From: Promethearchaeota archaeon
Lineage (GTDB): Archaea; Asgardarchaeota; Lokiarchaeia; Sigyniarchaeales; SOKP01
Length of the DNA stretch: 17,101 bases
NCBI GenBank assembly: GCA_013375475.1
Contig: JABXKD010000075.1
Span: 1-17,101 of the forward strand
Reading direction: 5' to 3'
Shown piece by piece: positions 1 through 17,101 of the stretch (positions are counted from its first letter, which is position 1; every line of letters begins with the position of its first letter). Under the pieces are notes generated by a model that was not told the origin of the DNA, ran no database searches, and saw only the letters and a program-made list of their open reading frames with translations. The position numbers were made by a program, and so were the translations under genes.

Positions 1-4
1 ACAT

Positions 5-16
5 AAAAAAAAAAAA
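5..16 (-). terminator. Oligo-T (T12 on minus strand) putative terminator after the membrane protein gene
   Basis: A12 on + at 5-16, ~25 nt downstream of the TAA at 42-44. Archaeal terminators are typically oligo-U tracts. Confidence 0.55.
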
Positions 17-41
17 TTAGTAGTTTTTTAATTTATGGCGT

Positions 42-437
42 TTAGCTTCTCTGTTTGATATAAGAGACAATTCCAAGCGTTAAAAGCACAGCTTCTACAG
101 TTATAGTAAATAAACCTTGTAGCCTCCACGAAGCTTCAAAAGTGGAGTATAACGTAGCATATACGGCAACTTCAATGATTAATGTGAATATAAGTAATCC
201 TATAAAATACTCAAATGTCAATTTAATTTCTTCCCATTCCTTTTTACGAAGCATTAAAATTGCGAAAATAGCAGATAATAAATTAACTCCCCCAAACATT
301 CTTGGAAGATAGGGGTTTGTCCATCCCGCAGGATTCATGGCCATATCATATAGGAATGTAAGGAGTATTCCAAATATGAACCAAAGAATAGTATCCACTA
401 AAAGTACGATTTTTGTAAATTTTTTTATTTCAGTCAT
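42..437 (-). CDS. Small integral membrane protein, about 4 TM helices, unknown function
   Basis: Four hydrophobic segments; 'PRMFGG' at the start of TM2. Start moved from GTG 449 to ATG 437 because GAGGTGA (452-446) is an SD lying 8 nt upstream of that ATG. Confidence 0.85.
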   Translation of the reverse strand: MTEIKKFTKIVLLVDTILWFIFGILLTFLYDMAMNPAGWTNPYLPRMFGGVNLLSAIFAILMLRKKEWEEIKLTFEYFIGLLIFTLIIEVAVYATLYSTFEASWRLQGLFTITVEAVLLTLGIVSYIKQRS

Positions 438-476
438 TTTTTTTATCACCTCTATTTGTTTTTTGTTTTATTTTTC

Positions 477-491
477 CCATCAAATTGATGG
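477..491. promoter_or_regulatory. Palindrome CCATCAA-A-TTGATGG upstream of the membrane protein gene
   Basis: Perfect 7-bp arms with a 1-nt spacer, read directly from the sequence. Function is inferred. Confidence 0.4.
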
Positions 492-503
492 TTGATGCGT
501 TTT

Positions 504-516
504 AAAAAAAAAAAAA
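504..516 (-). terminator. Oligo-T (T13 on minus strand) putative terminator after the secreted protein gene
   Basis: A13 on + at 504-516, ~50 nt downstream of the TAG at 568-570. It may double as a TTTTAAAA TATA box (507-500) for the next gene. Confidence 0.5.
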
Positions 517-567
517 GATTTTAGAATATATTTTCTCTCTGTTACGATTGATTTAGCGTTATGGAAC

Positions 568-1260
568 CTATTTTTCCACGTATTTTGTCAAATAGGATCC
601 CGGACCGACCGGGAACATACCAGGTCCAAACCCCACATTTATTGTTGGGATGCCAACATCCCATATAACCGCAGCAAGGACCCATCCTCCTTGTTCCAAA
701 TTACAAACTGGATTTTCGTCGGATCCTGGGGGATAATTGGGATCTTCAGGATCAAATTCATAATATTCACCTTTAGGGCTTAGTAACATTAAAATCTGTG
801 CTGATATGTATTTACCTCCAGTATTTGGCATGGTTATTGGAAACAAATTTCGATATAATTCCAGGGAATAATCAGTATCAGTAGTTTTAACCTTTCCCCC
901 ACCCACGACCTGCCAAACGTGAATAAACCAGAATTCAAAGATTGGGCAATAAAAAGTAAAATCGGTCGTTAGAAGGAATCCATCTTTGAGCATTCCTTTC
1001 ATCGCATACACTTTTTCACCTGATTCTTCATCATAGATTTTTGAATGGAAATTTACTTGTACCGAAGGGAAACCACTGACTTTATCGAATTTCATCTTCC
1101 CTACGATAAGATTAGTAGCATTGATATCTAGATCGTCTCCTATTGCCATGAATGAGACGCGATTAGAACTAGCAGCCATCACTGGTGTCATAATTGCTAT
1201 AATAGTTATGAAAAATGTTGCCGCGATCATTGCTTTAGTCATTTTTGATTTCTTTTTCAC
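568..1260 (-). CDS. Putative secreted protein with Sec signal peptide, unknown function
   Basis: Basic N-region (KKKSK..K), hydrophobic core (AMIAATFFITIIAIM) and a TPVMA|AS cleavage-like site. The mature part looks beta-strand and Gly/Pro rich. SD GAGGTGA at 1275-1269 lies 8 nt before GTG 1260; ATG 1266 and ATG 1242 are alternatives. Confidence 0.8.
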   Translation of the reverse strand: MKKKSKMTKAMIAATFFITIIAIMTPVMAASSNRVSFMAIGDDLDINATNLIVGKMKFDKVSGFPSVQVNFHSKIYDEESGEKVYAMKGMLKDGFLLTTDFTFYCPIFEFWFIHVWQVVGGGKVKTTDTDYSLELYRNLFPITMPNTGGKYISAQILMLLSPKGEYYEFDPEDPNYPPGSDENPVCNLEQGGWVLAAVIWDVGIPTINVGFGPGMFPVGPGSYLTKYVEK

Positions 1261-1362
1261 TATCATTTTCACCTCAAATATTTCTTTTTATTCAACTCTT
1301 TATTGTTAAATTTCGATTTTATCATCTTTACGATGATTAATTAAATCTTGAGTTATTATTGC

Positions 1363-1370
1363 ATTTATAA
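1363..1370 (-). promoter_or_regulatory. Putative TATA box (TTATAAAT) for the secreted protein gene
   Basis: Archaeal TATA-like octamer on the minus strand, ~100 nt upstream of the start and next to the direct repeat. Confidence 0.5.
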
Positions 1371-1375
1371 TTGAT

Positions 1376-1400
1376 CTATCGATAGTTTCACGATAGTTTC
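1376..1400. promoter_or_regulatory. Direct repeat CGATAGTTTC x2 (11-bp period) overlapping the palindrome CTATCGATAG; candidate operator
   Basis: Exact 10-mers at 1380-1389 and 1391-1400; perfect 10-bp palindrome at 1376-1385; lies in the divergent intergenic region next to a wHTH regulator gene. Confidence 0.6.
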
Positions 1401-1489
1401 GATTTTTTTTGAAAGTATTATGAAATAAATATAAATAGAAAAGAATCCGATCTATAATTCAGAAAAAACGAATTTGGTTTTCTCAAATT

Positions 1490-3394
1490 ATGAGAAATGT
1501 AAAGTATCCTCCAGAAAAGATCTATAGCCCTTCTAAGTGGAAAAGGCCGAATTATGACCATATTATTCTCTGGATGCTAAATAATAACGAGATGTGCAAG
1601 TGGGCGGATTTTTGTAAGGAACCAATTGAAATTCCTCCGGGTACTTTATCTAGACATTTGGAACCCTTAAAACGCAAGGGATTTGTAGAAAAAGTTGCGA
1701 GAGGCCATTACAGAATCACACCAGAGGGAAAAAAGGAATTTCATGCACTATCCGGCACTAAGAAAAAGGCACACCAACTAAATTATCCTCCTGAGGTAAT
1801 CATAAAAAGCGGTCGGAATTATTTTCATTGGATACTTTGGATGGTTTATAATAATACTTATTGCAAAAGATCTGAATTTCTAGAAGATCCTTTGTCAATA
1901 AATCAATCTTCGTTGTCAAAAAATTTGAATTCATTAATTGAAAAGGGTTTTGTAATAAAGGAGGATGGAAAATATGTAATTACCAGAGCAGGTAAATCTG
2001 AGTATTCAAAGATGCTTCAAAATTATGATTTAGATAGGCAAACAATTTTAGAAGAGGAAAGTAAACGGGTTGATGAAACAACTAAAAAAACATTTGAATT
2101 TTTCAGCAAATTCAAGGTCACTAATGATAACATTAGATATAGGTTTATTAATAATAAATTAAAATTGGATTATTCAAAAGTAAGCAACATTTTAAAAGAG
2201 GAAGTAGATTTTGATAAAGTTTTACTCTTCATTTCAACCAATCATCCTGATTTTTACCCTGATTATATATCATTTGATGAGTTTTCAAGATTTTACCATA
2301 TTAAAAAAAAAACTCTTGATTTTTGGGTTGATGAGATTGTAGAAAATGATTTATTTAATCTTAAGTTTTTTAAATTAGAAGTTTTTCCGGATAAGTGTTA
2401 TTATTTCCGATCCAACGATAAACTAGAAAGGATACTTCGAGCGATTACTGAGGACCATATTACAAAATATACTTTTTTAGCAAAATTTGGTAAATCCGAG
2501 ACTATGACCTCTATAATAGATGATATCCTTGAAGAAATTTGTAGTAAAATATTTAATGAGGATTTAAGGGATCAATTAAAAGACTTCTTACCTGAATATA
2601 TTCGAGTTCTAGCCTATAAAATCGAGACTAAAGGAATGTTAAAGGATACTTATGATAAATTAGAAGGACTTATTTGGCAGAATATGTCAGATATAATTCA
2701 AATTAAAGGTTCTAATAAGTTAGAAAATCAATATAAAGAAAAAATTAAAGAAATTGATAACGAACTTGAATCTGATCCAATGAACCTTGATTTATACTAT
2801 TCAAAAATTAGAATTTTGGTTTATTTCAACCAATATAATTTATCCTTAACATTATTAGATGAAATCCTTGAAAATTTCCCCGAAAATGAAAAGGATATTA
2901 AAATTAAAAAAGCTTCAGTCCTTAAAAAAATGAAAAGAGTTGAAAGCGGATTAGAATTAATTAACGATTTGATTCAAAAATATCCAAAAGATCATGATCT
3001 TCTTAGTTATAAAGCCTATTGGCTACAATTTTTAGATAGAAAAGAAGAAGCAATAAAAGTAATTCAGAAACTCATAGAAAATGAACCTGATAAGGGAATT
3101 TATTATGATACTTATGGAGAAATTTTAATGTATTTTGAAGAATATGAAGAAGCGACTAAAAAATTCGTAAAGGCTATGGTTTTAGGGAGCCATGATTGGT
3201 ACATTTACCAAACTTATATCAAATTAGGGATATGCTATAAAGTACTTGGAAATCTTGAGTTTGGAACTGAAAACCTTAAAAAAGGGAGAAGTTTTGTAAT
3301 TAAAAGCGTAAATGATCCTGATACCAAAAAAAAATGGCTTTCAATCGTAGATCTTTTTCTATCAGATAATGGACCAATAGAAGTAAAACTCTAA
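1490..3394 (+). CDS. Tandem winged-helix + C-terminal TPR protein, putative transcription regulator
   Basis: Two homologous N-terminal repeats: YPPE..NY.H.ILWM..NN..CK...F...P..I....LS..L..L..KGFV.K..G.Y.IT..GK.E (aa ~4-84 and ~97-172), matching a wHTH pattern. A third wHTH-like unit may lie near aa 240-307. The C-terminal third has ~34-aa helical repeats (ENFPEN, QKYPKD, ENEPDK..YYDTYGEIL...EEYEEA) typical of TPRs. Confidence 0.85.
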   Translation: MRNVKYPPEKIYSPSKWKRPNYDHIILWMLNNNEMCKWADFCKEPIEIPPGTLSRHLEPLKRKGFVEKVARGHYRITPEGKKEFHALSGTKKKAHQLNYPPEVIIKSGRNYFHWILWMVYNNTYCKRSEFLEDPLSINQSSLSKNLNSLIEKGFVIKEDGKYVITRAGKSEYSKMLQNYDLDRQTILEEESKRVDETTKKTFEFFSKFKVTNDNIRYRFINNKLKLDYSKVSNILKEEVDFDKVLLFISTNHPDFYPDYISFDEFSRFYHIKKKTLDFWVDEIVENDLFNLKFFKLEVFPDKCYYFRSNDKLERILRAITEDHITKYTFLAKFGKSETMTSIIDDILEEICSKIFNEDLRDQLKDFLPEYIRVLAYKIETKGMLKDTYDKLEGLIWQNMSDIIQIKGSNKLENQYKEKIKEIDNELESDPMNLDLYYSKIRILVYFNQYNLSLTLLDEILENFPENEKDIKIKKASVLKKMKRVESGLELINDLIQKYPKDHDLLSYKAYWLQFLDRKEEAIKVIQKLIENEPDKGIYYDTYGEILMYFEEYEEATKKFVKAMVLGSHDWYIYQTYIKLGICYKVLGNLEFGTENLKKGRSFVIKSVNDPDTKKKWLSIVDLFLSDNGPIEVKL

Positions 3395-3425
3395 TGCAAA
3401 CATCTTATTAATAATACAAAACTGT

Positions 3426-3440
3426 CGAAAAGCTTAAATA
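3426..3440 (+). promoter_or_regulatory. Putative BRE-TATA (CGAAAAG-CTTAAATA) for the MFS gene, implying a ~200-nt leader
   Basis: Purine-rich BRE followed by a TATA-like box. A similar AAGCTT(T)AA motif precedes other genes in the window (~5016, ~11606, ~13834, ~13860). Confidence 0.5.
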
Positions 3441-3481
3441 TTAGTCAAACGCTTAATAATATAGTGAATTAAAATGGATTA

Positions 3482-3637
3482 AGTTTATAGCGATTACTTT
3501 TTGTGATTGAGTAATTTTAATTTAAATTACTTTTGACCACATATCTAACCCTATCTTAATATCGCTATGAACTCTGAACAGCTACTCATATATTCATAGA
3601 GATTATGTTGGGGTATTAATCGTCTTTAACAGAGTTT
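3482..3637 (+). ncRNA. Candidate structured 5' leader RNA of the MFS gene
   Basis: By-eye pairing: a 13-bp stem 3482-3494/3561-3573 (one G-U) encloses a hairpin 3502-3517/3524-3541. Alternative stems are 3565-3571/3593-3599 and 3570-3576/3630-3636. I recognise no known RNA family. Confidence 0.35.
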
Positions 3638-3673
3638 TCCATAATTAGCAGAAGGTACAAGGTGAAGAGAATA

Positions 3674-4903
3674 ATGAATTTATTGGGTAATTCAGAGGAA
3701 ATTGATAAAGTTCAGAAAAAAAATCTGTGGGCTTTATTTTTTATGAGTTTAATTTATGGTTTCGCCTCGAAACCGTTCTTCATAGTGTATCAACCTTTTT
3801 TATTAGAAATTACAGATTCAGTCTTTATAACAGGTATTTTTGTAACTCTGGGAGGCATCCTCCTATTTTTACCAAAACCCTGGGTGGGAAGATTATCTGA
3901 TAGATTTAACCGCAAAAAAGTTTGGTTGCTTGAATTGCCCTTTTTTTACATTGGAATGACTTTCCTATTATTTACAGAAAATCTTATATTTCTGGTTCCA
4001 GGAATAATCTTCTTTCATTTAAGCGGAGCGATTGGAGAGATTGGTTACTTTATGTTTATTTCCGCAAGTAGCGATAAAACAAAGAAAGGGATTTTGTTTG
4101 GTTTGATGTTTTTTGGTATATTTATTGGTAATATCTGTGGAGAATTTTTTGTAATGCTTGATGTTGTCGACGATATTAGAATTTATTTTATTCTTTACAT
4201 AATATTAGATACATTCAGTTATCTCATCTTAATTTTTGTTATTTCTGACCCCAGATCTATAAGGGCTAAAGATTTTGCGATTACTACGGGGATTACTAAT
4301 AAAAAGCAGACTATGTGGAAAGATATCTTTAAATCACCTAAGAAAAGAGCTGTATTAATCTTCTTTGTGCTTGACACCTTCATTTATAGTATTTCACTCT
4401 CAATTCTTGGAGCCGGTTTGAGAGCTCAATACGGTTTGACATATGAAGAGATGGCTTTCATAGCAATCTGGTTAAGTATTTCAACTATGATTTTTCAAAT
4501 TCCCGGAGGACATTTAGCAGATAAAATCGGGAAAAAACGCTCTTTAATCGTGAGTGAATTATTTGGTTTAAGCGTTTTTTTTATTTTTATATTAACATTC
4601 ATTCTTTGGTCCTTAGGATTTCAAATATTTTTGATTCCACTACTTAGCGTTGCTAACATATTATGGGGTCTTAATAAAGCAACATTCATTCCTTCAGCGC
4701 AAATAATATTAACGGATTTAGATGAAACCAGAAAGGCTGAATCATATGGGATTTCAAGTTTTCTATTAGGAATTGGATTGATGCCTACAGGGATTATAGG
4801 AGGTTTCTTGACTGAAAAAGTTAGTTATATTACCCCATTTATCTTAAGTTTTATAGGAATTATATTTTTAATTTGGTTCTTATCTAAAAACTTCCACGAT
4901 TAG
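3674..4903 (+). CDS. Major facilitator superfamily transporter
   Basis: About 12 hydrophobic segments; MFS motif A twice (GRLSDRFNRK, GHLADKIGKK). AGGTGA at 3660-3665 lies 8 nt before ATG 3674, so this start is preferred to GTG 3662. Confidence 0.93.
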   Translation: MNLLGNSEEIDKVQKKNLWALFFMSLIYGFASKPFFIVYQPFLLEITDSVFITGIFVTLGGILLFLPKPWVGRLSDRFNRKKVWLLELPFFYIGMTFLLFTENLIFLVPGIIFFHLSGAIGEIGYFMFISASSDKTKKGILFGLMFFGIFIGNICGEFFVMLDVVDDIRIYFILYIILDTFSYLILIFVISDPRSIRAKDFAITTGITNKKQTMWKDIFKSPKKRAVLIFFVLDTFIYSISLSILGAGLRAQYGLTYEEMAFIAIWLSISTMIFQIPGGHLADKIGKKRSLIVSELFGLSVFFIFILTFILWSLGFQIFLIPLLSVANILWGLNKATFIPSAQIILTDLDETRKAESYGISSFLLGIGLMPTGIIGGFLTEKVSYITPFILSFIGIIFLIWFLSKNFHD

Positions 4904-5000
4904 ATATAAAAATGATAGAGTCTTAAATGAAAGGAGTAGAGTCCTAGGTATAAATTAAATTCCCTTTATAATACAAATAAATAAATTAGTGAAACGTTTT

Positions 5001-5018
5001 TTTATACTTAAGTATAAA
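5001..5018. promoter_or_regulatory. Perfect 18-bp palindrome TTTATACTTAAGTATAAA; candidate operator
   Basis: Read directly. It overlaps the AAAGC-TTTAAC promoter-like element (5016-5026) ~40 nt before ATG 5061. Confidence 0.5.
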
Positions 5019-5060
5019 GCTTTAACTAGGAATTAAAAATAAATTATTCTAATATCTCTT

Positions 5061-6455
5061 ATGACCGACCAAGGAAGCTATGATTCAGCACTGCAAGAAA
5101 TAAAAGTCATTTTTACTTTTCTTACAGAAGATAAACCTACACCAGATGATGAGATCGAAGCCAAAGACAAACTAATTAATCAATTCAGCAGATTAAAAAA
5201 CAATAGTACGTATCCCGAAGAAATTAATTTTATCGACCGAATATTGCAGAAATTGGACGAATGGGATACGCTCGATCTTTGGTTTTCAGAAACAAGTCTC
5301 CCGGATGATATTATGAATATATTAAATATACCTAAGAGGACCGAAACTTCAAAAGAAGAAGAGTTAGCTGATGTGCAAAAAACCCCTATTGAACAGACAA
5401 ACGGAGATTCAGAAGTTGATCTGACAGACATTTTTAATAAAGTTTCGGAGCAGTTTAAAGGGGAAATTGAGAATTTGAAAGGAACAATAGACACTCTTAA
5501 GAAAGAATTGGATAAGAAAGACGAGCCTGCCAAACTTCCAGCTCGTAAACGGGAAGTACATAAAATAACTCCTAACCCGAATGCAAAATTAGCTCCACCT
5601 GTAATTAAAATACCTGCTATAAAAAAGCTCGTAAAACCCCCTCAAAAAAAACTGCAATCAGTTCCAAAAATTCCAACTCCCACTGAAATCGAACAACAAG
5701 AAGCATTTAAAGAGCAATTAACTCCAATTCCTACTGAACCAGAAGAAATACCTTTACCCGTTGAAGATCACGATTTAACCCCTATCCCTAAAAAAACCCC
5801 TAGTATAGAAACAGTCGTATTTGAAGAATCAATGAAAGAAGACATTCCTTTAAAAACAGAAAAAAGGAAAATCACATCAATTATACCAGAAAAACCAAAA
5901 GAAGCATCTACTTCAGAATTATCGGAATCGAAACCATTCTTAATTGAGATACCTAAAATTTCCGCTGTGAAAATTGAAGAAATCGAAAGCGAGTCTATTG
6001 TTTCAAGTGGATCTGACCTTTTTAATGTATTTTCCTCTGTAGGGACTAAATCACAAAAAAAACCGCAAGAAATCATCGGATTTACTGAAAGGCACCCCAA
6101 AGTAGAAGAAAAGAAAAAACTTGAGAAGAAGAAAAAGAAAACCAAAGACGATCAAGAACCTGCTGCAATGCCTTTTATAAACTTTAATGATAACAAAGCC
6201 AGCATTGAACCTGAATTAGAAAGTCCAAATTTAGAGAATATTTCCGAAGATAAAGATACTCTTTATCAAGAACTGATCGCACTCGAGGGAAGGCGTTATT
6301 CCTTAGAAAGAAACTTTAAAGATGTAGAGAAGAATTTTAATAAAGGCTCGATATCAGATGCTGATTTTAAAAGGCAAAATAACATCCTTAAGAAGCAATT
6401 GAATGAAATTACTTCGCGTATTAATAATATTAGAAGAATTATATCCAGTTTATAG
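5061..6455 (+). CDS. Hypothetical protein: helical N-domain, coiled coil, long Pro/Lys/Glu-rich disordered linker, C-terminal helical hairpin
   Basis: 464-aa ORF. Coiled-coil-like at aa ~120-155; low complexity at ~155-395; C-terminal coiled coil with 'KGSISDADFKRQ' resembling a SHOCT-like G.I...EF motif. Confidence 0.85.
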   Translation: MTDQGSYDSALQEIKVIFTFLTEDKPTPDDEIEAKDKLINQFSRLKNNSTYPEEINFIDRILQKLDEWDTLDLWFSETSLPDDIMNILNIPKRTETSKEEELADVQKTPIEQTNGDSEVDLTDIFNKVSEQFKGEIENLKGTIDTLKKELDKKDEPAKLPARKREVHKITPNPNAKLAPPVIKIPAIKKLVKPPQKKLQSVPKIPTPTEIEQQEAFKEQLTPIPTEPEEIPLPVEDHDLTPIPKKTPSIETVVFEESMKEDIPLKTEKRKITSIIPEKPKEASTSELSESKPFLIEIPKISAVKIEEIESESIVSSGSDLFNVFSSVGTKSQKKPQEIIGFTERHPKVEEKKKLEKKKKKTKDDQEPAAMPFINFNDNKASIEPELESPNLENISEDKDTLYQELIALEGRRYSLERNFKDVEKNFNKGSISDADFKRQNNILKKQLNEITSRINNIRRIISSL

Positions 6456-6457
6456 CA

Positions 6458-7231
6458 TCAAATTTTGTTACTCTCCCTTAAATCAAAAAATGGTGGCATT
6501 TTAAGCTTATGTTCAGCTGCATTCATCATTGTTCTTACTTTTTTAATGTCGTTTTCGTTAATACCTTTAAAATCTAAATTGTAATCGATTCTATAAAGAA
6601 TTTCATCTATAGTATCATAGGTTAATCCAATTTCTCCCTCGTCTGTTTGTCCCGGCCAAAGACCTGCACTTGGGGCTTTAATTATTATTCTCTCGGGTAA
6701 TTTTAATAATTTCGCAATTTTCCTGACTTCCTGCTTATATAGAGACGCTATGGGCTCAAAATCGGCTGCGCCGTCTCCATATTTTGTAAAATACCCAATT
6801 ATTAATTCAGCTCGATTACTTGTTCCAGCAACTAAGCTTTTTCCCTTAGATTGACCTATAAAATATAATGCCATCATGCGTAATCGGGGTTTAAGATTAG
6901 CTGAAGCTAATTTATCCTTTCTTAGTAAGGGGTTTGTTATATCCAAGAATTTTTCGTAAACAGGTGTTAGATCTAAAACATCAAAATTGATTCCTAAGTG
7001 TTTAGCAATTGATTTAGCGTCATCGAGATCTTTTGATATAGATCCACACGGTAAGCCCATGCCAATTATCTTCTCTTTTCCAATTGCATTCGAACATAAC
7101 GCTGCTGTAACCGCGCTATCGATTCCACCACTCAATCCCACCACAATAATGGTAGCTTTAGCATTCTTTACATAATTTTTAATCCAGTCTTGAATATCAA
7201 CTACAATTTTTTTATAATTGAGTTCGCGCAT
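6458..7231 (-). CDS. nadE: NH3-dependent NAD+ synthetase
   Basis: GLSGGIDS PP-loop, NLKPRLRM, GTSNRAE..IGYFTKYGDG, LYKQEV, KAPSAGLWPGQTDEGEIG, EHK. No glutaminase domain. Confidence 0.97.
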   Translation of the reverse strand: MRELNYKKIVVDIQDWIKNYVKNAKATIIVVGLSGGIDSAVTAALCSNAIGKEKIIGMGLPCGSISKDLDDAKSIAKHLGINFDVLDLTPVYEKFLDITNPLLRKDKLASANLKPRLRMMALYFIGQSKGKSLVAGTSNRAELIIGYFTKYGDGAADFEPIASLYKQEVRKIAKLLKLPERIIIKAPSAGLWPGQTDEGEIGLTYDTIDEILYRIDYNLDFKGINENDIKKVRTMMNAAEHKLKMPPFFDLRESNKI

Positions 7232-7266
7232 AATGTCTATAAATCTTTTTTTTTTTAAAAATTCAT

Positions 7267-7288
7267 TTAAAAAGCTATTAAAAAGCTA
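7267..7288. repeat. Tandem 11-mer TTAAAAAGCTA x2 in the nadE promoter region
   Basis: Exact copies at 7267-7277 and 7278-7288. The minus strand reads TAGCTTTTTAA and overlaps a TTTTTAAAT TATA-like box. Confidence 0.55.
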
Positions 7289-7381
7289 AAATTCAAATAA
7301 GAAATATATGATTATACATTTAAAAAAAACTCTTAATTATCAATTATTATTATATTGTCTTAGAGTGAAAATTGATTTACT

Positions 7382-7795
7382 ATGAGTGACTTCAAAGCTA
7401 TAGTTGATTCATCATTTGATAGTGGAATTCCGTTCTGGATTTACACAAGCGATTATATTTTCGGTATGATTCCTCTAGACGCAAGTGGAGCTCGTTGGAA
7501 AGAAGTTTCATATACTTTTGAAGAACCAGATAATCCCCTTTTTGTCACGGAGAGGGATGCGGAACTATCCTTTCAATTTCTTCTCGAAGAAGTCGAAAAA
7601 GGAGTATCATTTTATGTCGACGATCTTAAAATTCCACTAATTAAAGAATTCGCAAAAACTCTTGAAGGGAAATCTGGTCCTGAAAAGATGAATGCTTTTA
7701 TAGCTGAATTAATTAACAATTCTTCCAATTATTCCTCAAAATTACCAATCATTAAAAATAAAGACGAACTCGGGACTCTTACAAATAAATTATAG
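7382..7795 (+). CDS. Hypothetical soluble protein
   Basis: 137-aa ATG ORF filling an intergenic gap, globular composition, T-rich tract downstream. No family recognised. Confidence 0.8.
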   Translation: MSDFKAIVDSSFDSGIPFWIYTSDYIFGMIPLDASGARWKEVSYTFEEPDNPLFVTERDAELSFQFLLEEVEKGVSFYVDDLKIPLIKEFAKTLEGKSGPEKMNAFIAELINNSSNYSSKLPIIKNKDELGTLTNKL

Positions 7796-7872
7796 TGCAT
7801 TGTTTGATACTATAATTATTTTTTTATTTTCTTGTAAATTTTTAATTCTTATTAGGAAAAGCATAAATCTGT

Positions 7873-8364
7873 TTAAATATATAAATTCTTTCTCTGAGGA
7901 TGTTTTTTGGTGAATTCTTCATCGATTCTTTTGGCCATTTGGTAGCCTAAATTCGAATCTCGTTCTCCAATAATCTTTTTCAAATAATCTCCATGTTGTT
8001 GAGAATATTTTTCTATTCCTGAAGCAATGATATTCTGATCTTTTTTTATAGGAACAATCATGCCAAACAATCGAAGCATTTCATCAGGTGATAAGGCTTT
8101 ACCTTTACCCGAGGCTTCATCGATGTCTTTGTCTATGTTTCGAACAATTGTGCCCATACTTAACGACGAATAGGGATTTAGCATTTTGGATTTTAACCAG
8201 TAGGCGTTAGGTTTTTTTGTTATAAAAGTATCTGTATTTCCATGATCATCTTTAGATCCAATAACTCTCCAATCAGTAGGATCTCTATCATACTCCTTTT
8301 TCAATTTTTTTATTATTGGCTTGATCGGAGCTACTCCGTCTTTTTCATCTTCGTTATTTTTCAT
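7873..8364 (-). CDS. Hypothetical protein, probably a conserved archaeal family
   Basis: 163-aa ORF. The DP..WR.....D.F.....Y.LK....NPY....G...R..D pattern recalls uncharacterised euryarchaeal proteins (from memory, not verified). Confidence 0.8.
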   Translation of the reverse strand: MKNNEDEKDGVAPIKPIIKKLKKEYDRDPTDWRVIGSKDDHGNTDTFITKKPNAYWLKSKMLNPYSSLSMGTIVRNIDKDIDEASGKGKALSPDEMLRLFGMIVPIKKDQNIIASGIEKYSQQHGDYLKKIIGERDSNLGYQMAKRIDEEFTKKHPQRKNLYI

Positions 8365-8502
8365 GCTTCTGATTATTATAAATAAATTTAACTATAAAAA
8401 GATAAAGAATATACAACATAAGAATTAATGAATTACACCATTATAATTTTCAGTTGTAAAACCATTAACAAATTAACACTTTAGGTTACATTATACAAGG
8501 AA

Positions 8503-10368
8503 ATGAAAGAAAAAGAAAAGCATCTACAAGCTGAGGTTTTGTTTAAATCTATTCAAAATTTTATTGAAACCGGCAATCATACTAAAATATCTGAGAGTTT
8601 AAATGAGCTAAATAGAATTGAAACTGATTTTTTGGACGTTTATAGCAATAGGAAAAAAGAGGGGGCTTACTATACTCAAGAATCAGTTTCAAACTTCATA
8701 GTTTCCCAAGGAATAACTTTTTTTCTTCAAACCTATCTTAAAAGTAATCAATTTAATAAATTAGAAGATATTTATAGTTTGGATGACGATACCAAGTCGA
8801 GAATCAAGCAAAAAATACTAAAGTTTTCCATCATCGATCCTGCCTGCGGTTCAGGAGTCTTCCTCCTGAGCGCTACAAAGGAAATTTATAAACTGATGCG
8901 AAAGCTCGAACCTGAATTGGACATAGCAAAAATCAAACTGCATATTTTAGAAAACATTTTTGGTTCTGAGATTAACGATTATGCTCGAAAACTTTGTATA
9001 ATGAAATTATTTAGGTGGGCATATTCTAAAAATAACTTAGTTAATTCAAAGATTTTTTCAATATTGAATTCTAACATTTTGTTAGAAGATAGTTTAGAAA
9101 GAAAAAAGAGCTCTAAATACGATCTTGTTATCGGAAACCCTCCCTATGGAAACATATTAGACAAAAATCAAAAGGAGAGGTTAAAATCAGAGGATATTTT
9201 TTATAACGATATATACTGTGCGTTTTTATTAAAATCTCTTGAGTGGACTGATGGTTTGATTGGATATTTAGTACCAAAAAGTTTTTTGCTACGACAGGGA
9301 TATATAAGATTTAGAAAGAAACTCTTATCTCTTGCAAATCTTCTCAAAATTTACGACATCGGTCCAAACTTGTTTGCAAAGGCGACAAACGAGGTCCAAA
9401 TTCTATTCTATGAGAAAAAAAGCGATACGAGTAAAGATGTAGAGGTATATCAATATCCAAATACCGAAATTGTAAAATATCCTAAACAAAAAGTTGATTA
9501 TTTAAGAGTATGCTTTAATAATGCCTGCCCTTTAAGCGTCAATAGCAAAAAGATTTACGCTTATGTGTCAGATTTAAAATGTCCATATTGTAATTCTAAA
9601 ACTTTAGCTTTAAATCGCATTAGAATTAAGCCAAATGAGACGATATTAAACCTTGTCACCAAAATTGAAAAAATAGGAGATGTAAATTATCTTAATATAT
9701 CGCGAATACCAAACATGATAAGGGGAGAAGAAGACAAAGGATTAAAACTAATCATAAACCTTATTGAAGAAAATACTAATAATAGTTGCTATTTTATAAA
9801 AGCAAAAGGAGATTTTAATTACTACTATTTTAATAAAGATAAGTCGTTTGCTATTGAAAACTTAGACCCAAAAATCCTAAAAGGAAACAATTTCGAATTT
9901 TATACTGATCCTAAATTATTAATTAAGCATAATAGTATCTTTCCTCAGTCTGTATTCAGTAAAGATAATGTATGTTTTACATCTTCAATCTATTCAATAA
10001 TCAGCGATGATGACATAGAGCTAAAATACATCAATGCAATCCTAAATTCTTCTCTAATGCAATTTTATTGTCTTTACGGGATAAACAATCAACAAAACAC
10101 AACAATAAATCTAAATCAGTATATGATTCGACATCTGCCCGTATTGAATGCTGCATCAGAAATAAAAAATAAGTTAAGTAATCTCGTACAAAGAGTGATT
10201 AACTCTCTTATCGAAAGTAAAGGAATTTATACCGGAGATGTATTGTCCACAATTGGAAGAATTGAAGAAAATATTTTTGAACTTTATGATTTAGAAAGTA
10301 ATGAAAGGAATATAATAATTTCCGACATTAAAAACCGAGTAGATCTCTATAAAAAGGTTTATAATTAA
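8503..10368 (+). CDS. N6-adenine DNA methyltransferase, gamma class (TaqI/Eco57I-like), with C-terminal target recognition region
   Basis: Motif X GAYYT, motif I IIDPACGSG.F, IFGSEIN, motif IV VIGNPPY, DIY..F, YLVP.SFL. The C-terminal 'LKYINAILNSSL..FY...N..MIRHLPV' resembles TaqI_C. No N-terminal nuclease domain. Confidence 0.93.
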   Translation: MKEKEKHLQAEVLFKSIQNFIETGNHTKISESLNELNRIETDFLDVYSNRKKEGAYYTQESVSNFIVSQGITFFLQTYLKSNQFNKLEDIYSLDDDTKSRIKQKILKFSIIDPACGSGVFLLSATKEIYKLMRKLEPELDIAKIKLHILENIFGSEINDYARKLCIMKLFRWAYSKNNLVNSKIFSILNSNILLEDSLERKKSSKYDLVIGNPPYGNILDKNQKERLKSEDIFYNDIYCAFLLKSLEWTDGLIGYLVPKSFLLRQGYIRFRKKLLSLANLLKIYDIGPNLFAKATNEVQILFYEKKSDTSKDVEVYQYPNTEIVKYPKQKVDYLRVCFNNACPLSVNSKKIYAYVSDLKCPYCNSKTLALNRIRIKPNETILNLVTKIEKIGDVNYLNISRIPNMIRGEEDKGLKLIINLIEENTNNSCYFIKAKGDFNYYYFNKDKSFAIENLDPKILKGNNFEFYTDPKLLIKHNSIFPQSVFSKDNVCFTSSIYSIISDDDIELKYINAILNSSLMQFYCLYGINNQQNTTINLNQYMIRHLPVLNAASEIKNKLSNLVQRVINSLIESKGIYTGDVLSTIGRIEENIFELYDLESNERNIIISDIKNRVDLYKKVYN

Positions 10369-10392
10369 CTCTTGATTGGAAGAATAGTGAAT

Positions 10393-11421
10393 TTAATCTT
10401 TTAATTTTAAAATTATATTGCACTCTGAATCCCCTAATCCCATAAATTTATCTCTCTCTACTTCAATTTTAGGATTAAATTCTTTAATAACGGGTTGCAA
10501 ATACGAAATACACATGTCTTTACAAATAGATTCGATTCTATTATGCCTTTCGGGATTTCTTTCCATTGCCGCTATGTAAGGACATTCAATTATGCTTATT
10601 GTAGCCTGATTATCCCCTTCTTGAAAAATATTGTGGATATTTCCTTCGCAATTCCATATAAAAGAAAGAACATTAACTAAATCTTCTAGAGTATTCCCTT
10701 TAATGTTTAAATATTTTATTACTCTGCGGAATATTATTATATATAATTTCTGCCATACGCTTATATCAAGCTTAAGAGCTGCATCCCAACCTAGCTCTCG
10801 TTCTGTTTTTATTACCCACAATCCATCCAATGTTCGAAAATTCTTTTCAAAATAGAAAAGCTTATCTTCCTTCTTAATCTTTCTTATTTCTTCAGGGATT
10901 CCACCTTGCTCAGCCTTATCTAAAGTCTTATCTTCAAAGGATAAAGAAAAATCGCAAGAACTATCACCTAAGCCCATAAATGCCGTTCTATTAAGAATTA
11001 TATTCTCATTGTAATTTTCTACAACCGATTTATAGAAGGGAATACACATTTCTTTACAAATTAGAGGTTGTTTTTCTGTGCGTTCTGGATTACGACTCAT
11101 AGCTGCCTGATAGGGACATTGATCAACTACAATTTTAACTTTACCATCCTCACTCTTTAAAACTTTATATTCCCAACCTTCTATAGACCATCTGAAAGTA
11201 AGAATGTCGATTAAATTTCTTAGATCGTTTTTTTCTAATTGCAAATATTTCTTTAATCTACGAATGACAATGTTAAGTAATTTTTTCCATACAATCACAT
11301 CAATTTTTAGAGCTGTCTCCCAATTTGTCATTTCTTCCGTTTCGATCATCCAAAGCCCATCTAAGGTAAAAAAATTTCTTTCAAAGAAGAATAGTTTATC
11401 GTCTTGTGATACTTTTTTCAT
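10393..11421 (-). CDS. Tandem-duplicated DUF6125-like (V4R / ATC-hydrolase-like) domain protein
   Basis: Two ~163-aa repeats: DKLF.FE.NF.TLDGLW.I.TE....W..ALK.D..VW.KL..I..RR..KYL...CPY.AAM.RNPER......CK.MCI......FMGLGDS.C. The CP..C..C..GD..C pattern is V4R-clan-like. The family name is from recall. Confidence 0.8.
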   Translation of the reverse strand: MKKVSQDDKLFFFERNFFTLDGLWMIETEEMTNWETALKIDVIVWKKLLNIVIRRLKKYLQLEKNDLRNLIDILTFRWSIEGWEYKVLKSEDGKVKIVVDQCPYQAAMSRNPERTEKQPLICKEMCIPFYKSVVENYNENIILNRTAFMGLGDSSCDFSLSFEDKTLDKAEQGGIPEEIRKIKKEDKLFYFEKNFRTLDGLWVIKTERELGWDAALKLDISVWQKLYIIIFRRVIKYLNIKGNTLEDLVNVLSFIWNCEGNIHNIFQEGDNQATISIIECPYIAAMERNPERHNRIESICKDMCISYLQPVIKEFNPKIEVERDKFMGLGDSECNIILKLKD

Positions 11422-11453
11422 CTAAAATTCCTAATTTAAATGTTAAATCTTTA

Positions 11454-11475
11454 AATATTGAAACGTATCAATATT
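11454..11475. promoter_or_regulatory. 22-bp near-perfect palindrome AATATTGA-AACGTA-TCAATATT upstream of the DUF6125-like gene
   Basis: Perfect 8-bp arms with a central ACGT. It overlaps a minus-strand ATTTAAA TATA-like box ~30 nt upstream of ATG 11421. Confidence 0.45.
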
Positions 11476-11650
11476 ATTAATAGTATCAACTTAAATCGAA
11501 ATAATTGTAACGTATTTTAAAAAGTATTCCTTTCGTAGGATCTTGCTGCTTTAACGATTTTCATGATATAATATCTATGAATTTTAATTATTAATAGAGG
11601 ATTTAGAAGCTTTAAATATCAAAACTTTTAAATAATGACAATTATTTTAT

Positions 11651-11672
11651 TAATTTAGATATACCTAAATTA
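11651..11672. promoter_or_regulatory. DtxR/MntR-family-like operator TAATTTAG-ATATAC-CTAAATTA
   Basis: Perfect 8-bp arms. The TTTAG-N6-CTAAA core resembles DtxR-family metalloregulator boxes. It lies between a TATA-like TTTTAAATA (11626-11634) and the ZIP transporter start. Confidence 0.65.
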
Positions 11673-11684
11673 GTGATTTTTGTA

Positions 11685-12587
11685 ATGGAAGTTTTTCTAT
11701 TTGCTCTCCTTTTAAGCTTACTTGCGGGATTATCAACAACAATCGGAAGTGTTATTGCCCTCATTGTTAAAAAACCTAATCCTAAATTTATTTCTCTTAG
11801 TATGGGTTTTTCAGCCGGAGTAATGATCCTGATTGCATTTGTAGAATTACTCCCAGAAGCCATCAAAGAATTAGATTTATTAACAGGTTCACTGTTTTTC
11901 TTCTTGGGGATGTTAATTATGTTTGGTATAGATGTATTCATCTCTCATGAGTATGAATTCGAAGATTCGATAGAAATCTTAACAAATGACAATGGATCCT
12001 GCAGTCCTCATCCACATCATGTTCTATATCATAAAAAACCCAGAAGAAAAAGACATCAAGGTCGCCAAGGGCTTCGTCGTGGATATAGAGATGGGAAAGG
12101 AGACAGACCTCAAGATGGGCGTGGACGCAAAGATGAAATCAATTTAGTAAAAACATCAATTTTTACATTTTTAGGCGTCTTTATTCATAATTTTCCCGAG
12201 GGAATGGCTACTTATATCGGAGCTATTACAGAAATTCAATTAGGAATTATTTTAGCACTAGCCATAGCCCTTCATAACATTCCTGAAGGAATTGCCGTTG
12301 CCGTACCTATTTATGCATGTACAGGAAATAAAAAGAAGGCGTTTAAGTGGTCATTTCTTTCTGGGATAAGCGAACCATTAGGAGCTGTTGTTACTTGGAT
12401 AGTTTTAACTCCTTTTATTACCCCATTTTTATTAAGTGCAATGCTTGCTATCGTTGCGGGTGTTATGATCTACATTTCGTTAGATGAGTTATTACCTGCT
12501 TCAAGATCACTAGGATACGAACATCTATCCATTCTTGGAATAATTGTTGGAATGTTTATTATGACACTCAGCTTAGTTATCTTGTAA
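11685..12587 (+). CDS. zupT: ZIP family divalent metal transporter (ZupT/GufA-like)
   Basis: LAGLST.IG, GFSAGVM....F.ELLPEA, HNFPEG, HNIPEGIAVAVP, SGISEPLGA, AGVMIYISLDELLP. ATG 11685 is preferred; GTG 11673 abuts the operator. Confidence 0.93.
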   Translation: MEVFLFALLLSLLAGLSTTIGSVIALIVKKPNPKFISLSMGFSAGVMILIAFVELLPEAIKELDLLTGSLFFFLGMLIMFGIDVFISHEYEFEDSIEILTNDNGSCSPHPHHVLYHKKPRRKRHQGRQGLRRGYRDGKGDRPQDGRGRKDEINLVKTSIFTFLGVFIHNFPEGMATYIGAITEIQLGIILALAIALHNIPEGIAVAVPIYACTGNKKKAFKWSFLSGISEPLGAVVTWIVLTPFITPFLLSAMLAIVAGVMIYISLDELLPASRSLGYEHLSILGIIVGMFIMTLSLVIL

Positions 12588-12639
12588 TATAATGGATTAA
12601 AAGAAAAAAATTAAAAAATAATATATTAACAGGACTTAT

Positions 12640-13779
12640 TTATCTTAGCCTTGGAGGTGCCACATATACCTTCCGCATTCCTTCTAATAAACTAATGGCA
12701 TTTTCAGGACAAAAATGAGCACATACTCCACAACCAATACAACATTCTGCATTAACTTCTGCTTTTTCGCTATCATTTAATTCTATCGCATCTACGGGGC
12801 ATTTTTCGACGCATGTTCCACAACCAACGCACAAATCAGGATCGACTTGCGATAAATAATTAGTGGAGTTGATCAAAGCAACTATTCCCATTCTCCACCA
12901 TTCCAAAGTACCACAACAATCTTTACAGCAATTACATATACTCGTTTCTGTTTTTGTAATATCTGAATGGGGATGAAATGCTTTATGAACTAAGCCGTCA
13001 TCTTCTGACTTTTTCATTATCTCTAGAGCTTCTCCTTTAGAGATCAAACGGCCAAATCCTTGTTCTGCTACATATCTTGCTGATTTGCCGAAAGTAAAAC
13101 AGTTTTCCCTCAGATCAGTGTATTTACAAGGATTTCCTAATAGATCTCTGTGATGTCTACAGAAGCAGTGCCCAACAGAAATATCATCAAATTTTTCGAT
13201 CAGTTCTTCAACGTTCTGTGTAAGTAATATAGTCTCTTCAGGAACCTCTATTTCTTTATTTACAGATAAACTAATTTGGTCTCCTTGGATCGTTTCATTC
13301 AAAATTGGCACTGTTCTATCAATTGGAAGCATATTTTCAAAAATTGGTAATATCTGTTCGTAATTAGCTTGAATAAAATCCCTAGTTTCCTCGAAGTAGT
13401 TTGAAAACATTTTAGCGAGTTTTTCTTCAACCTCGTTGTGCTCAATTTTTTTCATGTAAAGGTATTCAAAAGCACCGACCATGAGCAATGGCATTAACCT
13501 ATAGACCATCACCCCTTCCGAATTTGGTTGATTGAATATGAACCCTTTCTTGGCTAATCGCTTAACAAAAGATAAAATCTGAGGCTCGGATAATTTACTA
13601 GTCTTTTTTAGCTGGTCCATAGTTTGAGAAGTTTTCCTTCTAAAAGCATTAATGAAATCCAATTCGTCTTCAGTTAGTTGTGTTTTCAATATTTCTATCA
13701 AAGTACTGTTAACAGGCGTAGGCAAAATTCCAGCTTTAGTGATTATATAAGCTGCTTTTTTATATATTTCATCTGACAT
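12640..13779 (-). CDS. Fe-S protein: wHTH-like N-terminus, Cys-rich core and C-terminal 2x[4Fe-4S] ferredoxin domain
   Basis: CVGCGTCVEKCP and CIGCGVCAHFCP; central CFCR..C..C and ICNCCKDCC; N-terminal 'TMDQLKK...SEPQILSFVKRLAKKGFI' helix-turn-helix-wing pattern. ATG 13779 is preferred to TTG 13788 given the TATA-like TTTATAAG at 13820-13813. Confidence 0.88.
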   Translation of the reverse strand: MSDEIYKKAAYIITKAGILPTPVNSTLIEILKTQLTEDELDFINAFRRKTSQTMDQLKKTSKLSEPQILSFVKRLAKKGFIFNQPNSEGVMVYRLMPLLMVGAFEYLYMKKIEHNEVEEKLAKMFSNYFEETRDFIQANYEQILPIFENMLPIDRTVPILNETIQGDQISLSVNKEIEVPEETILLTQNVEELIEKFDDISVGHCFCRHHRDLLGNPCKYTDLRENCFTFGKSARYVAEQGFGRLISKGEALEIMKKSEDDGLVHKAFHPHSDITKTETSICNCCKDCCGTLEWWRMGIVALINSTNYLSQVDPDLCVGCGTCVEKCPVDAIELNDSEKAEVNAECCIGCGVCAHFCPENAISLLEGMRKVYVAPPRLR

Positions 13780-13917
13780 TAGTATCAATTCAAATGGTAA
13801 TATCTAATAATACTTATAAACCTTCAAAATTAAAAAGCTTTAAACAATAAGCAATAACTAAAGCTTTTATAAATAATTAATAAAATAAATTGTATTCTAC
13901 AAATAGAGGATTTCGAA

Positions 13918-14727
13918 ATGGAATTTAAAAATATTTTATATAAGAAGGAGGATCAGGTAGTAACGATAACGATAAATCGTCCAGAGGTTAGGAATTGCAT
14001 CAATAACGAAACAAATCTAGAATTACATGACGCTTGGAAAGCCTTTCGAGACGATGATGATGCTCTAGTAGCAATTTTCACTGGAGCGGGTGATAAGGCG
14101 TTTTCTGCCGGTTGGGATCTTAATGATGCCGCTGCACTTGAAAAATTGGATAATTACGATCAGTTTCGCGTTGCTGTGCATGGGATTGATGGATTTTGTG
14201 GATATACTAAAAAGTTTGACATATTTAAACCAATTATCGCAGCTATAAATGGTTATACTTACGCTGCTGGCCTTGAAAATTGTCTCCTAGCAGATATTCG
14301 AATAGCTTCAGAAAAAGCTAAATTTGGAGCAACGGAAAGGCGATGGAATATTGTAGCTGGGGATGGACTCTGCGTTCGATTACCCCTTGTAATTGGATAC
14401 TCGCGCGCAATGGAACTTATTATAACTGGTCGAGTAATAGACGCTCAAGAAGCTTATCGAATAGGATTAGTTAACGAAGTAGTCCCTCACGATCAACTTA
14501 TGAAGAGAGCTAGAGAGCTAGCTTTGTCAATATGTAAATTACCTCAAGGAGCACTTCGCACGGATAAAGAAACTGTTGTAAGGTGCGTAGGTCGAACAGT
14601 TGAAGAAAGAACATTTATTGAAACTGAAGGTACCATGTCCATGTTTGCCAGAAGAGACAAGCACACCGAAGGAGCGAAGGCATTTCTTCAGAAAAGAAAA
14701 CCAGAGTGGAAAGATCGAGGAATATAA
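13918..14727 (+). CDS. Enoyl-CoA hydratase/isomerase (crotonase) family protein
   Basis: ITINRPEVRN, GAGDKAFSAGWDL, KPIIAAING...AAGLE, ADIRIASE.AKFGATE, LIITGR.IDAQEAY.IGLVNEVV. Both catalytic Glu positions are present. GAGGA SD at 13906-13910. Confidence 0.95.
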   Translation: MEFKNILYKKEDQVVTITINRPEVRNCINNETNLELHDAWKAFRDDDDALVAIFTGAGDKAFSAGWDLNDAAALEKLDNYDQFRVAVHGIDGFCGYTKKFDIFKPIIAAINGYTYAAGLENCLLADIRIASEKAKFGATERRWNIVAGDGLCVRLPLVIGYSRAMELIITGRVIDAQEAYRIGLVNEVVPHDQLMKRARELALSICKLPQGALRTDKETVVRCVGRTVEERTFIETEGTMSMFARRDKHTEGAKAFLQKRKPEWKDRGI

Positions 14728-14752
14728 AACTAATTTCCAACTGAAAAAGTGA

Positions 14753-16039: not shown

Positions 16040-16061
16040 AAGATTCCGTGATTATTATATT

Positions 16062-17045: not shown

Positions 17046-17101
17046 TTAAAAACAATATTGAAATAATCTGAATCCTCAGATAGCATTATGGTCCCACTAA
17101 T

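Follow-up and report, generated by a model that had tools for sequence, protein, structure and literature searches.

A candidate one-component regulator with tandem winged helices and a TPR domain, and its conserved, probably bidirectional promoter region, in Asgard archaea

The regulator protein

The window analyzed here is a 17,101-nt stretch of DNA from a Promethearchaeota archaeon of the Lokiarchaeia (contig JABXKD010000075.1 of assembly GCA_013375475.1, positions 1 to 17,101). In the sequence-derived list of its open reading frames (ORFs), a gene for a 634-aa protein, hereafter the regulator (1490..3394, plus strand), lies head-to-head with sec, which encodes a protein of ~230 aa with a signal-peptide-like N-terminus; beyond sec lies tm4, for a 131-aa protein with four hydrophobic segments. 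Our subject is the regulator, the control region between it and sec, and the genes that it may control. An earlier note, made from the window's sequence alone, had described a protein with tandem winged helix-turn-helix (wHTH) domains and tetratricopeptide repeats (TPRs) that faces genes for a secreted and a four-transmembrane protein, and this layout is borne out by the ORFs, self-alignment, Pfam matches, and hydropathy.

The two wHTH repeats are homologous, with 42% identity between aa 4-87 and aa 97-175 (E 5e-20). In an AlphaFold model built on a 57-homolog alignment (predicted local distance difference test, pLDDT, 81.8; predicted template-modeling score, pTM, 0.39; pLDDT 83.4 in a second model, of aa 1-410), wHTH 1 takes up aa 20-88 (1547..1753) and wHTH 2 aa 110-177 (1817..2020), both on the plus strand. 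Each was compared with ~48,000 solved chains: wHTH 1 matches 8jxk (Z 10.0, root-mean-square deviation 1.6 over 68 residues) and the PadR-DNA complex 5x11 (Z 9.3), and wHTH 2 matches BldR (3f3x, Z 10.0) and the MarR-DNA complex 5h3r (Z 9.6). In the models, both wHTHs have a PadR/MarR-like winged-helix fold, with a three-helix bundle and a beta-hairpin wing, and the comparison with such folds, DNA complexes included, supports the earlier impression that the regulator looks like a DNA-binding protein. Pfam winged-helix matches lie at aa 26-86 and 130-172 (HTH_34, HTH_45, TrmB, and HVO_A0261_N); scores for MarR, MarR_2, and PadR stay under the curated cut-offs, so the likeness is one of fold and not of membership in those Pfam families. 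Although each wHTH matches PadR/MarR regulators at Z 9-10, those proteins are ~100-180 aa long, use helices of their own to dimerize, and for the most part recognize inverted repeats, whereas the regulator has a covalent wHTH pair, direct-repeat candidate sites, and a 450-aa tail for predicted dimerization plus TPRs. A Foldseek search with the N-terminal half found nothing at E ≤1e-3; among its rows is the SarA homolog SarS (1p4x, E 1.9e-2), a single chain with two winged-helix domains.

After wHTH 2 comes a linker that is modeled with low confidence and may be flexible, and then a family-specific middle domain (aa 183-405; 2036..2704, plus strand). The model divides it into a helix (aa 183-207), a unit at aa 213-307 that looks, from its helices and hairpin and thus from secondary structure alone, like a third winged helix, further helices (aa 311-353), and a long helix (aa 357-405). 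Among 1.84 billion proteins, this domain found 103 cluster representatives at E ≤1e-3, nearly all with the domain equally placed along the chain. When aa 185-634 was modeled in two copies, the prediction was a symmetric pair, with a score of 0.63 against 0.00 for the best control; in calibration, 20 of 30 proteins with solved pair structures attained this mark, as did 1 of 23 with single-chain structures, counts that hold only roughly because the alignment was custom-made. Between runs, 78% or more of the contacts agree, partner pLDDT is 75 or higher, and the interface is placed at aa 194-221, 310-335, and 353. We therefore have a prediction, from the models, that the regulator forms a symmetric homodimer through its middle domain.

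The C-terminal part is a TPR repeat protein, that is, a tandem array of 34-residue helix-turn-helix units, with twelve helices in about six TPR pairs (aa 411-624; 2720..3361, plus strand). Pfam TPR matches span aa 447-580, with TPR_14, TPR_6, and TPR_2 at aa 473-534 (E 7e-6 to 3e-4); the 26.6 bits of TPR_14 exceed its cut-off of 23.5, and the remaining TPR models are below their cut-offs. With the whole model as query, Foldseek returned only TPR proteins, among them consensus-TPR, OGT, and MamA at E 3e-7 to 1e-5, the first two of them at 3e-7 to 3e-6.

Four cysteines of the regulator (C36, C125, C351, and C582) are invariant in the 57 homologs, and C36 and C125 hold equivalent positions in the two wHTHs (NNxxCKW and NNxxCKR). 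They could mean redox or metal sensing; OxsR of Haloferax is described as a thiol-based regulator with a single wHTH (PMC9426492).

A conserved control region and the divergent genes

With the TATA box as anchor, the sequences upstream of the regulators in 24 loci share a control region of ~150 bases that needs no gaps to align. Reading toward the regulator, it holds a palindrome, a TATA-like box for the divergent side, an array of short boxes, and a TATA box for the regulator gene itself. Per region there are three to four AGTTCC-type boxes, all in the same orientation, in the order CGATAGTTCC, then CGATAGTTTC 11 nt further on, then TGGAAGTTCT another 19 nt on, often with TTCC just before box 1. 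In the window, pattern search and the 24-locus alignment place box 1 (CGATAGTTTC, for which CGATAGTTCC is the family consensus) at 1380..1389 and box 2 (CGATAGTTTC) at 1391..1400, one helical turn apart; box 3 (TGAAAGTATT, a degenerate form of TGGAAGTTCT) follows at 1410..1419, all three on the plus strand. The regulator's TATA box, AATATAAATAG in the window and ATATAAATAG in the 24-locus description, lies at 1429..1439 on the plus strand, and in control-region loci it stands 59-65 nt before the ATG. Between the two is a conserved block, GATCTATAAT (1450..1459, plus strand), that could be a start-site region or a second TATA; the seven loci with AATTCC-type boxes, group B, have CAATTTATAC in its place. 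On the other side of the boxes, the TATA-like box TTTATAATT (1363..1371, minus strand) probably serves sec and tm4.

These elements stand well above their surroundings. Across the 24 loci, the regulator TATA has a mean pairwise identity of 94%; the divergent TATA follows with 82%, the palindrome arms with 78%, box 3 with 76%, and boxes 0-2 with 70%. By comparison, the palindrome loop and the 105-111 spacer reach 41-44%, and four-fold sites between two regulator copies of the window's own genome 41% (36/87). Other baselines are less clean, at 74% for the spacer between box 3 and the regulator TATA and 54-57% for the remaining spacer and flank blocks. Because the element identities exceed the spacer and four-fold baselines, we conclude that the elements are under selection and do not simply survive from a recent duplication. 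The earlier note had seen a two-copy direct repeat between the divergent units, and it is indeed a conserved, phased element. A general repeat finder missed this 11-nt tandem repeat and a targeted DNA pattern search recovered it, but within the window its count is unremarkable (2 copies of CGATAGTTTC against 1.11 expected; 60 of 200 shuffles give at least 2), so the case for its reality comes from conservation in 24 homologous loci and not from the window. The palindrome, the degenerate third box, and both TATA-like boxes had been overlooked.

The palindrome, ATCATC-N5-GATGAT (1321..1337), lies ~25-30 nt downstream of the divergent TATA, at the expected start of the divergent transcript. Across the 24 loci its arms are far better conserved than its loop (78% versus 44%), 93.1% of cells are paired, and three pairs have changed on both sides, a level reached by 1 of 500 shuffles. 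It occurs at three loci in the own genome, compared with none in a simulated genome. Judged from its sequence and position, it probably forms a stem-loop at the 5' end of the divergent mRNA; that it is instead a symmetric protein site is the reading that we prefer less. In an Rfam scan of the whole window no family reached its gathering score, and a scan for sigma-70 promoters and terminators is uninformative here because the host is archaeal.

How do the divergent genes fit with this region? The ORF listed for sec (568..1272, minus strand) likely starts at a GTG at 1260, which leaves 568..1260, and that listed for tm4 (42..449, minus strand) likely starts at an ATG at 437, which leaves 42..437. 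Each of these starts follows, at 8 nt, a Shine-Dalgarno sequence GAGGTGA on the minus strand (1269..1275 for sec, 446..452 for tm4), as the earlier note had it; relatives have GAGTTGAT at the position before tm4, and in a homologous sec locus (L044) the nearer, in-between ATG is lost while the GTG at 8 nt is retained. The identity of the two sites is not special, however, because GAGGTGA fits the expected anti-Shine-Dalgarno complement. The long oligo-T tracts noted for both genes are likewise present on the minus strand, a T13 50 nt past the sec stop (505..517) and a T12 25 nt past the tm4 stop (5..16). Both are placed as archaeal oligo-T terminators would be and are likely terminators; a run of T9-13 is retained after sec in all eight sec-tm4 spacers.

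Those spacers also carry a trace of how sec may have arrived. Before tm4, all eight have a weaker copy of the palindrome together with the following leader down to the ribosome site, keeping the order ..TTTGATG(A/G).., GAGTTGA(T/A)/GAGGTGAT, an A run, and ATG. In the window this second palindrome is CCATCAAATTGATGG (476..490), 38 nt upstream of the tm4 start, and it belongs to a copy of the leader found before sec as well. Since the leader copy is present in all eight spacers, sec seems to have been inserted together with it.

The N-terminus of sec, MKKKSKMTKAMIAATFFITIIAIMTPVMA/AS, is signal-peptide-like by inspection and in a hydropathy window. Its Atlas search gave nothing at or above 0.9, and TM-scores to beta-barrel models were below 0.5 with a query model of pLDDT 0.53; no reliable relative was found there, and sec is an orphan protein. 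Of 61 related genomes, 14 have a sec homolog, and these belong to one and the same genus; a regulator lies divergent next door in 9 of 19 sec loci. sec is thus variable cargo and not a fixed partner of the regulator. The tm4 protein has hydropathy peaks at aa 10-28, 44-62, 78-96, and 109-127 and no Pfam family. Its Atlas matches, for a query that starts one codon past the ATG, are unnamed Promethearchaeota clusters only, the nearest having 136 members, mostly Promethearchaeota and without a Pfam family, and a tm4 homolog is found on the divergent side, within ~3 kb, in seven of eight extended loci of relatives. The contig ends where the window starts, so the module may extend past tm4. Open frames antisense to tm4 (142-312, plus strand) and sec (1121-1309, plus strand) recur in relatives, for example as 56-aa frames (L035, L036, and L053), and in all likelihood they mirror the conserved genes of the opposite strand and are not genes themselves.

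Linkage, target genes, and the wider family

The control region stays beside the regulator irrespective of the divergent gene. A sequence model of the region finds 1-8 copies in each of 28 of 41 genomes of the genus. At E ≤1e-10 there are 44 matches; when positions were matched by hand, 31 ended within ~40 nt of a regulator start, one lay at 465 nt, and 12 were solo. The divergent side is occupied by sec with tm4, by tm4 alone (seven loci), or by genes for LVIVD-repeat (E 1e-71 and 6e-76), NosD/beta-helix (2e-20 and 6e-37), SBBP propeller, or Kre9-like Ig proteins, and in two loci by a cytoplasmic protein. Those two partners (L038:2270-3082 and L042:531-1304; 258-271 aa) have no Pfam match, seem by eye to hold wHTH-like segments, and are the only ones among 23 that lack an N-terminal hydrophobic segment. 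The expectation that divergent secreted or membrane genes would recur beside regulator homologs is therefore upheld (21 of 23 begin with a hydrophobic segment), the partners being mostly secreted or membrane proteins, of which sec is not a fixed one.

Solo copies are informative about which promoter the elements may serve. Palindrome, divergent TATA, and boxes are retained in them, but most stop short of the regulator TATA (model positions 117-134), and many share a contig with a regulator a few kb away. Because they retain TTTATAATT and lose the regulator TATA, we assign TTTATAATT to the divergent promoter, and because the boxes are retained along with it, they would serve the divergent promoter as well as the regulator's. 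All four solo copies examined face a gene for a signal-peptide or transmembrane protein: one in the own genome (C16), one facing a sec-like gene (G008:C17), and two facing tm4 copies (G010:C43). The C16 copy (1546-2417) has no regulator gene and a decayed regulator-side TATA; the gene that it faces encodes a 236-aa signal-peptide protein (1707-2417), and the next one a small Ras/Rab-like GTPase (2602-3261).

The own genome holds three control-region copies by nhmmer, two beside regulators (C261 and C285) and the solo copy on C16; the next match has E 1.8, which rules out a broad box-defined regulon in this genome. On the sequence evidence, the regulon appears small and mostly local. The C285 copy belongs to an old duplicate of the whole module, with its own sec and tm4 (identities 61% for the regulator, 66% for sec, and 72% for tm4). 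The tm4 copy there (C285:7022-7422) matches in two mutually out-of-frame pieces (aa 1-82 and aa 93-135), owing to either a frameshift in the gene or a fault in the assembly. The C285 module and the C16 solo promoter are adjoined by paralogous TPR proteins (C285:4889-6829 and C16:104-1519) that have a C-terminal domain in common.

At least seven full-length paralogs of the regulator are encoded in the own genome. Divergent neighbors unlike sec and tm4 are found at C144:30057-30608 and 35532-36074, C42:3915-5504, and C8:4782-6584; the neighbors of these paralogs comprise two Rab-like small GTPases, a histidine kinase with a response regulator, and a leucine-rich repeat protein whose end is formed by one wHTH of this type. 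Of 8,000 candidates scored in a word-based search, 1,166 were homologs; the best 120 of these all have at least 60% identity and are mostly ~635 aa long, and the named ones come nearly all from Asgard metagenome bins, labeled "hypothetical" or "TPR repeat protein." Of 301 genomes drawn from the phylum, 68 besides the window's own belong to its GTDB family; the tandem-wHTH part (E ≤1e-10) was present in 55 of these and in none of 232 genomes from 29 other families. Regulator copies number 1-10 per genome, and the family's open frames cluster near 460, 640, 830, and 1,000 aa. A distant subfamily of ~830 aa has an inverted GAAACTT-N5-GAAGTTCG at the same place, so the half-site is shared but the arrangement differs. 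Public sequencing runs that contain the window's DNA are marine-sediment and subsurface metagenomes.

The remaining genes of the window (NAD synthase, N6 DNA methylase, ZIP transporter, ferredoxin, and beta-oxidation enzymes) are housekeeping genes unrelated to the regulator module. The methylase (621 aa, 8503-10368) is of the Eco57I/MmeI/TaqI-specificity type and is possibly a fused restriction-modification enzyme. Window ORFs 5061-6455 (464 aa), 7382-7795 (137 aa), and 7873-8364 (163 aa) match no Pfam family at E ≤1e-5. As a candidate module member, the downstream gene for a major facilitator superfamily (MFS) transporter was rejected because it adjoins the regulator in none of eight relatives' loci; likewise the other window genes, tm4 apart.

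How the regulator may act

Starting from what was computed, namely the domain folds, the conservation and spacing of the elements, their linkage to the regulator, the kinds of neighbors, and the predicted dimer, we put a probability of about 65% on the following explanation as a whole. The regulator would be a member of a lineage-restricted, multi-copy family of one-component transcription regulators, autoregulated and probably activating, that controls a small local set of surface-protein genes. Its two tandem wHTHs would be the DNA-reading head, its middle domain would hold together a symmetric homodimer, and its TPR domain, if it has a ligand of any kind, would receive a protein or peptide signal. 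The gene appears fused to a ~150-base bidirectional region in which, provided that the TATA directions and start sites are as we suppose, two TATA-like boxes point outward with the box array between them. Through its wHTH pairs, the regulator may bind these boxes just upstream of both TATA boxes and so control its own gene and the divergent ones, here sec and tm4, whose mRNA would begin with the short stem-loop. The same box array also stands before a few other secreted or membrane genes without a regulator, which suggests that the regulator also acts in trans on a small, mostly local regulon.

Why activation? The element that transcription factor B recognizes (BRE) and the TATA box are the landmarks here: according to PMC5512572, EarA at the fla promoter and Ptr2 bind several short boxes immediately upstream of BRE/TATA, are proposed to help recruit transcription factor B (TFB) and TATA-binding protein (TBP), and have surface-structure genes as targets. 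If our TATA assignment is right, the boxes described here lie in the same place, and the presumed targets are again surface proteins. EarA and Ptr2 are presumably small proteins of other families that lack TPRs, and unlike the regulator they have no fixed back-to-back promoter cassette copied before several genes. Because the boxes are upstream of both TATA boxes, activation by helping TBP and TFB, as known archaeal activators do, is by analogy likelier than repression.

The closest mechanistic parallel is AfsR of Streptomyces, a large SARP. According to PMC10936776, its winged-helix units line up beside one another on 11-bp direct repeats that adjoin the core promoter, and activate transcription, and a TPR domain damps activity. 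The regulator, for which box binding is predicted, resembles it in having wHTH units, 11-bp-spaced direct repeats next to the core promoter, and a C-terminal TPR domain. As that account has it, however, AfsR is bacterial, carries one OmpR-type wHTH and a BTA domain per chain, dimerizes on DNA, and has a NOD ATPase before the TPR, whereas the regulator has two fused PadR/MarR-type wHTHs, no ATPase, and an archaeal TATA/BRE promoter. No Trans_reg_C, BTAD, or NB-ARC appears among the 25 listed of 26 Pfam families at E ≤1, and the top 50 structure rows include no SARP chain. The likeness would then be one of mechanism only, with no sequence relationship found in these searches.

Several points weigh against this explanation or complicate it. 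The idea that two wHTHs read two half-sites would fit the 11-base phase but is too simple, since there are three to four boxes and the predicted dimer has four wHTHs; nor does a symmetric dimer obviously fit four boxes of the same orientation. The window's own copy lacks box 0 and the TTCC before box 1 in addition to its degenerate box 3. Genome-wide, the strict tandem-box pattern shows no enrichment (3 sites versus 2 in a simulated genome), so that the boxes alone define no broad regulon. It is tempting to read specificity into the two groups of loci, where GATAGTTCC boxes go with IP[PT]GTLSRH in the first recognition helix (group A) and GAAAATTCC boxes with IPISTLSRH (group B), but this is a single evolutionary split and is weak as co-variation. 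Expression is represented by a single metatranscriptome run with two contigs at depth 3, covering 3065-3314 and 3379-3500 only, toward the regulator gene's 3' end. Finally, another factor could bind the boxes.

This last point leads to the possibility that the conserved region is no more than a shared strong promoter with its leader, which general factors or another regulator would read, with the wHTH-TPR protein as a non-binding scaffold. Winged helices can also be, and often are, protein-binding modules; the N-terminal array gives weak Foldseek matches to multi-winged-helix scaffolds that are not sequence-specific (TFIIIC tauB, 1.6e-3; RPC62, 2.6e-3), and the solo matches carry boxes without a regulator gene. 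Yet 31 of the 44 strong, hand-matched copies abut a regulator start, the wHTH fold is closest to sequence-specific PadR/MarR binders, including DNA-bound structures, and the recognition-helix residues T52, S54, S143, and K144 are invariant across the 57 homologs, all of which makes a scaffold very doubtful. A regulator that does bind the boxes might instead be a repressor or dual regulator, which blocks TFB and TBP between the two BRE/TATA elements until a signal arrives. Box 3 ends ~9 nt before the regulator TATA and the array begins ~6 nt from the divergent TATA, which would let the boxes overlap the BREs; the palindrome, at the head of the divergent leader, might act as a roadblock; and most PadR/MarR relatives are described as repressors. 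We consider repression unlikely, because the boxes lie upstream of both TATA boxes, neither over nor downstream of them, and are kept with the promoter in solo copies, as expected if the promoter needs them.

The earlier note had drawn an analogy to RRNPP peptide sensing, in which a secreted peptide, perhaps from a neighboring protein, would be re-imported to bind the TPR pocket and switch DNA binding. RRNPP receptors (Rgg, PlcR, NprR, PrgX, and AimR) do share with the regulator an N-terminal HTH, a C-terminal TPR domain, a cytoplasmic location, and a place beside the genes that they control, or here putatively control, and the partner genes are secreted. However, these receptors have one Xre-type HTH and a dedicated propeptide gene and belong to Bacillota and their phages; they are described for Gram-positive bacteria and their viruses. 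Neither feature is found at the regulator locus, where the HTHs are a duplicated PadR/MarR type and no candidate propeptide ORF of at least 20 aa occurs in 1273-1489 or 3395-3661, a search that covered neither shorter ORFs nor unusual starts. The divergent cargo varies too widely for a dedicated signal precursor, and the downstream MFS transporter is beside the regulator in none of the eight loci of relatives. The analogy is not borne out, and we regard peptide sensing of this kind as highly improbable.

A one-component winged-helix regulator with upstream boxes, as we propose here, is of a known kind; what is new is the architecture. We found no description of the regulator family or its promoter in full-text literature, in agreement with the earlier statement that no such system had been described, though a mention in supplementary tables of the asCOG type is possible. 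Very little is known to us of gene regulation in Asgard archaea, and we know of no lineage-specific Asgard regulator with a known operator. The case described here brings together a regulator whose DNA-reading head is clear, a candidate operator sharply delimited to ~60 bases, and a short list of presumed secreted or membrane targets, and this candidate circuit is testable in vitro without culturing the organism. A further reading, which we hold to be quite doubtful, is that the family consists of paralogous, portable "sensor plus promoter" cassettes whose TPR domains read the state of a partner and pass it to surface-gene transcription; the partner could be the Rab-like GTPases, the putative TPR-longin-like proteins, or the kinases beside sister copies. 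If that reading is true, it would be a direct link of eukaryote-like small-GTPase signaling to gene control in Asgard archaea. With sister copies beside Rab-like GTPases and a kinase pair, the family may give a handle on eukaryote-like signaling proteins.

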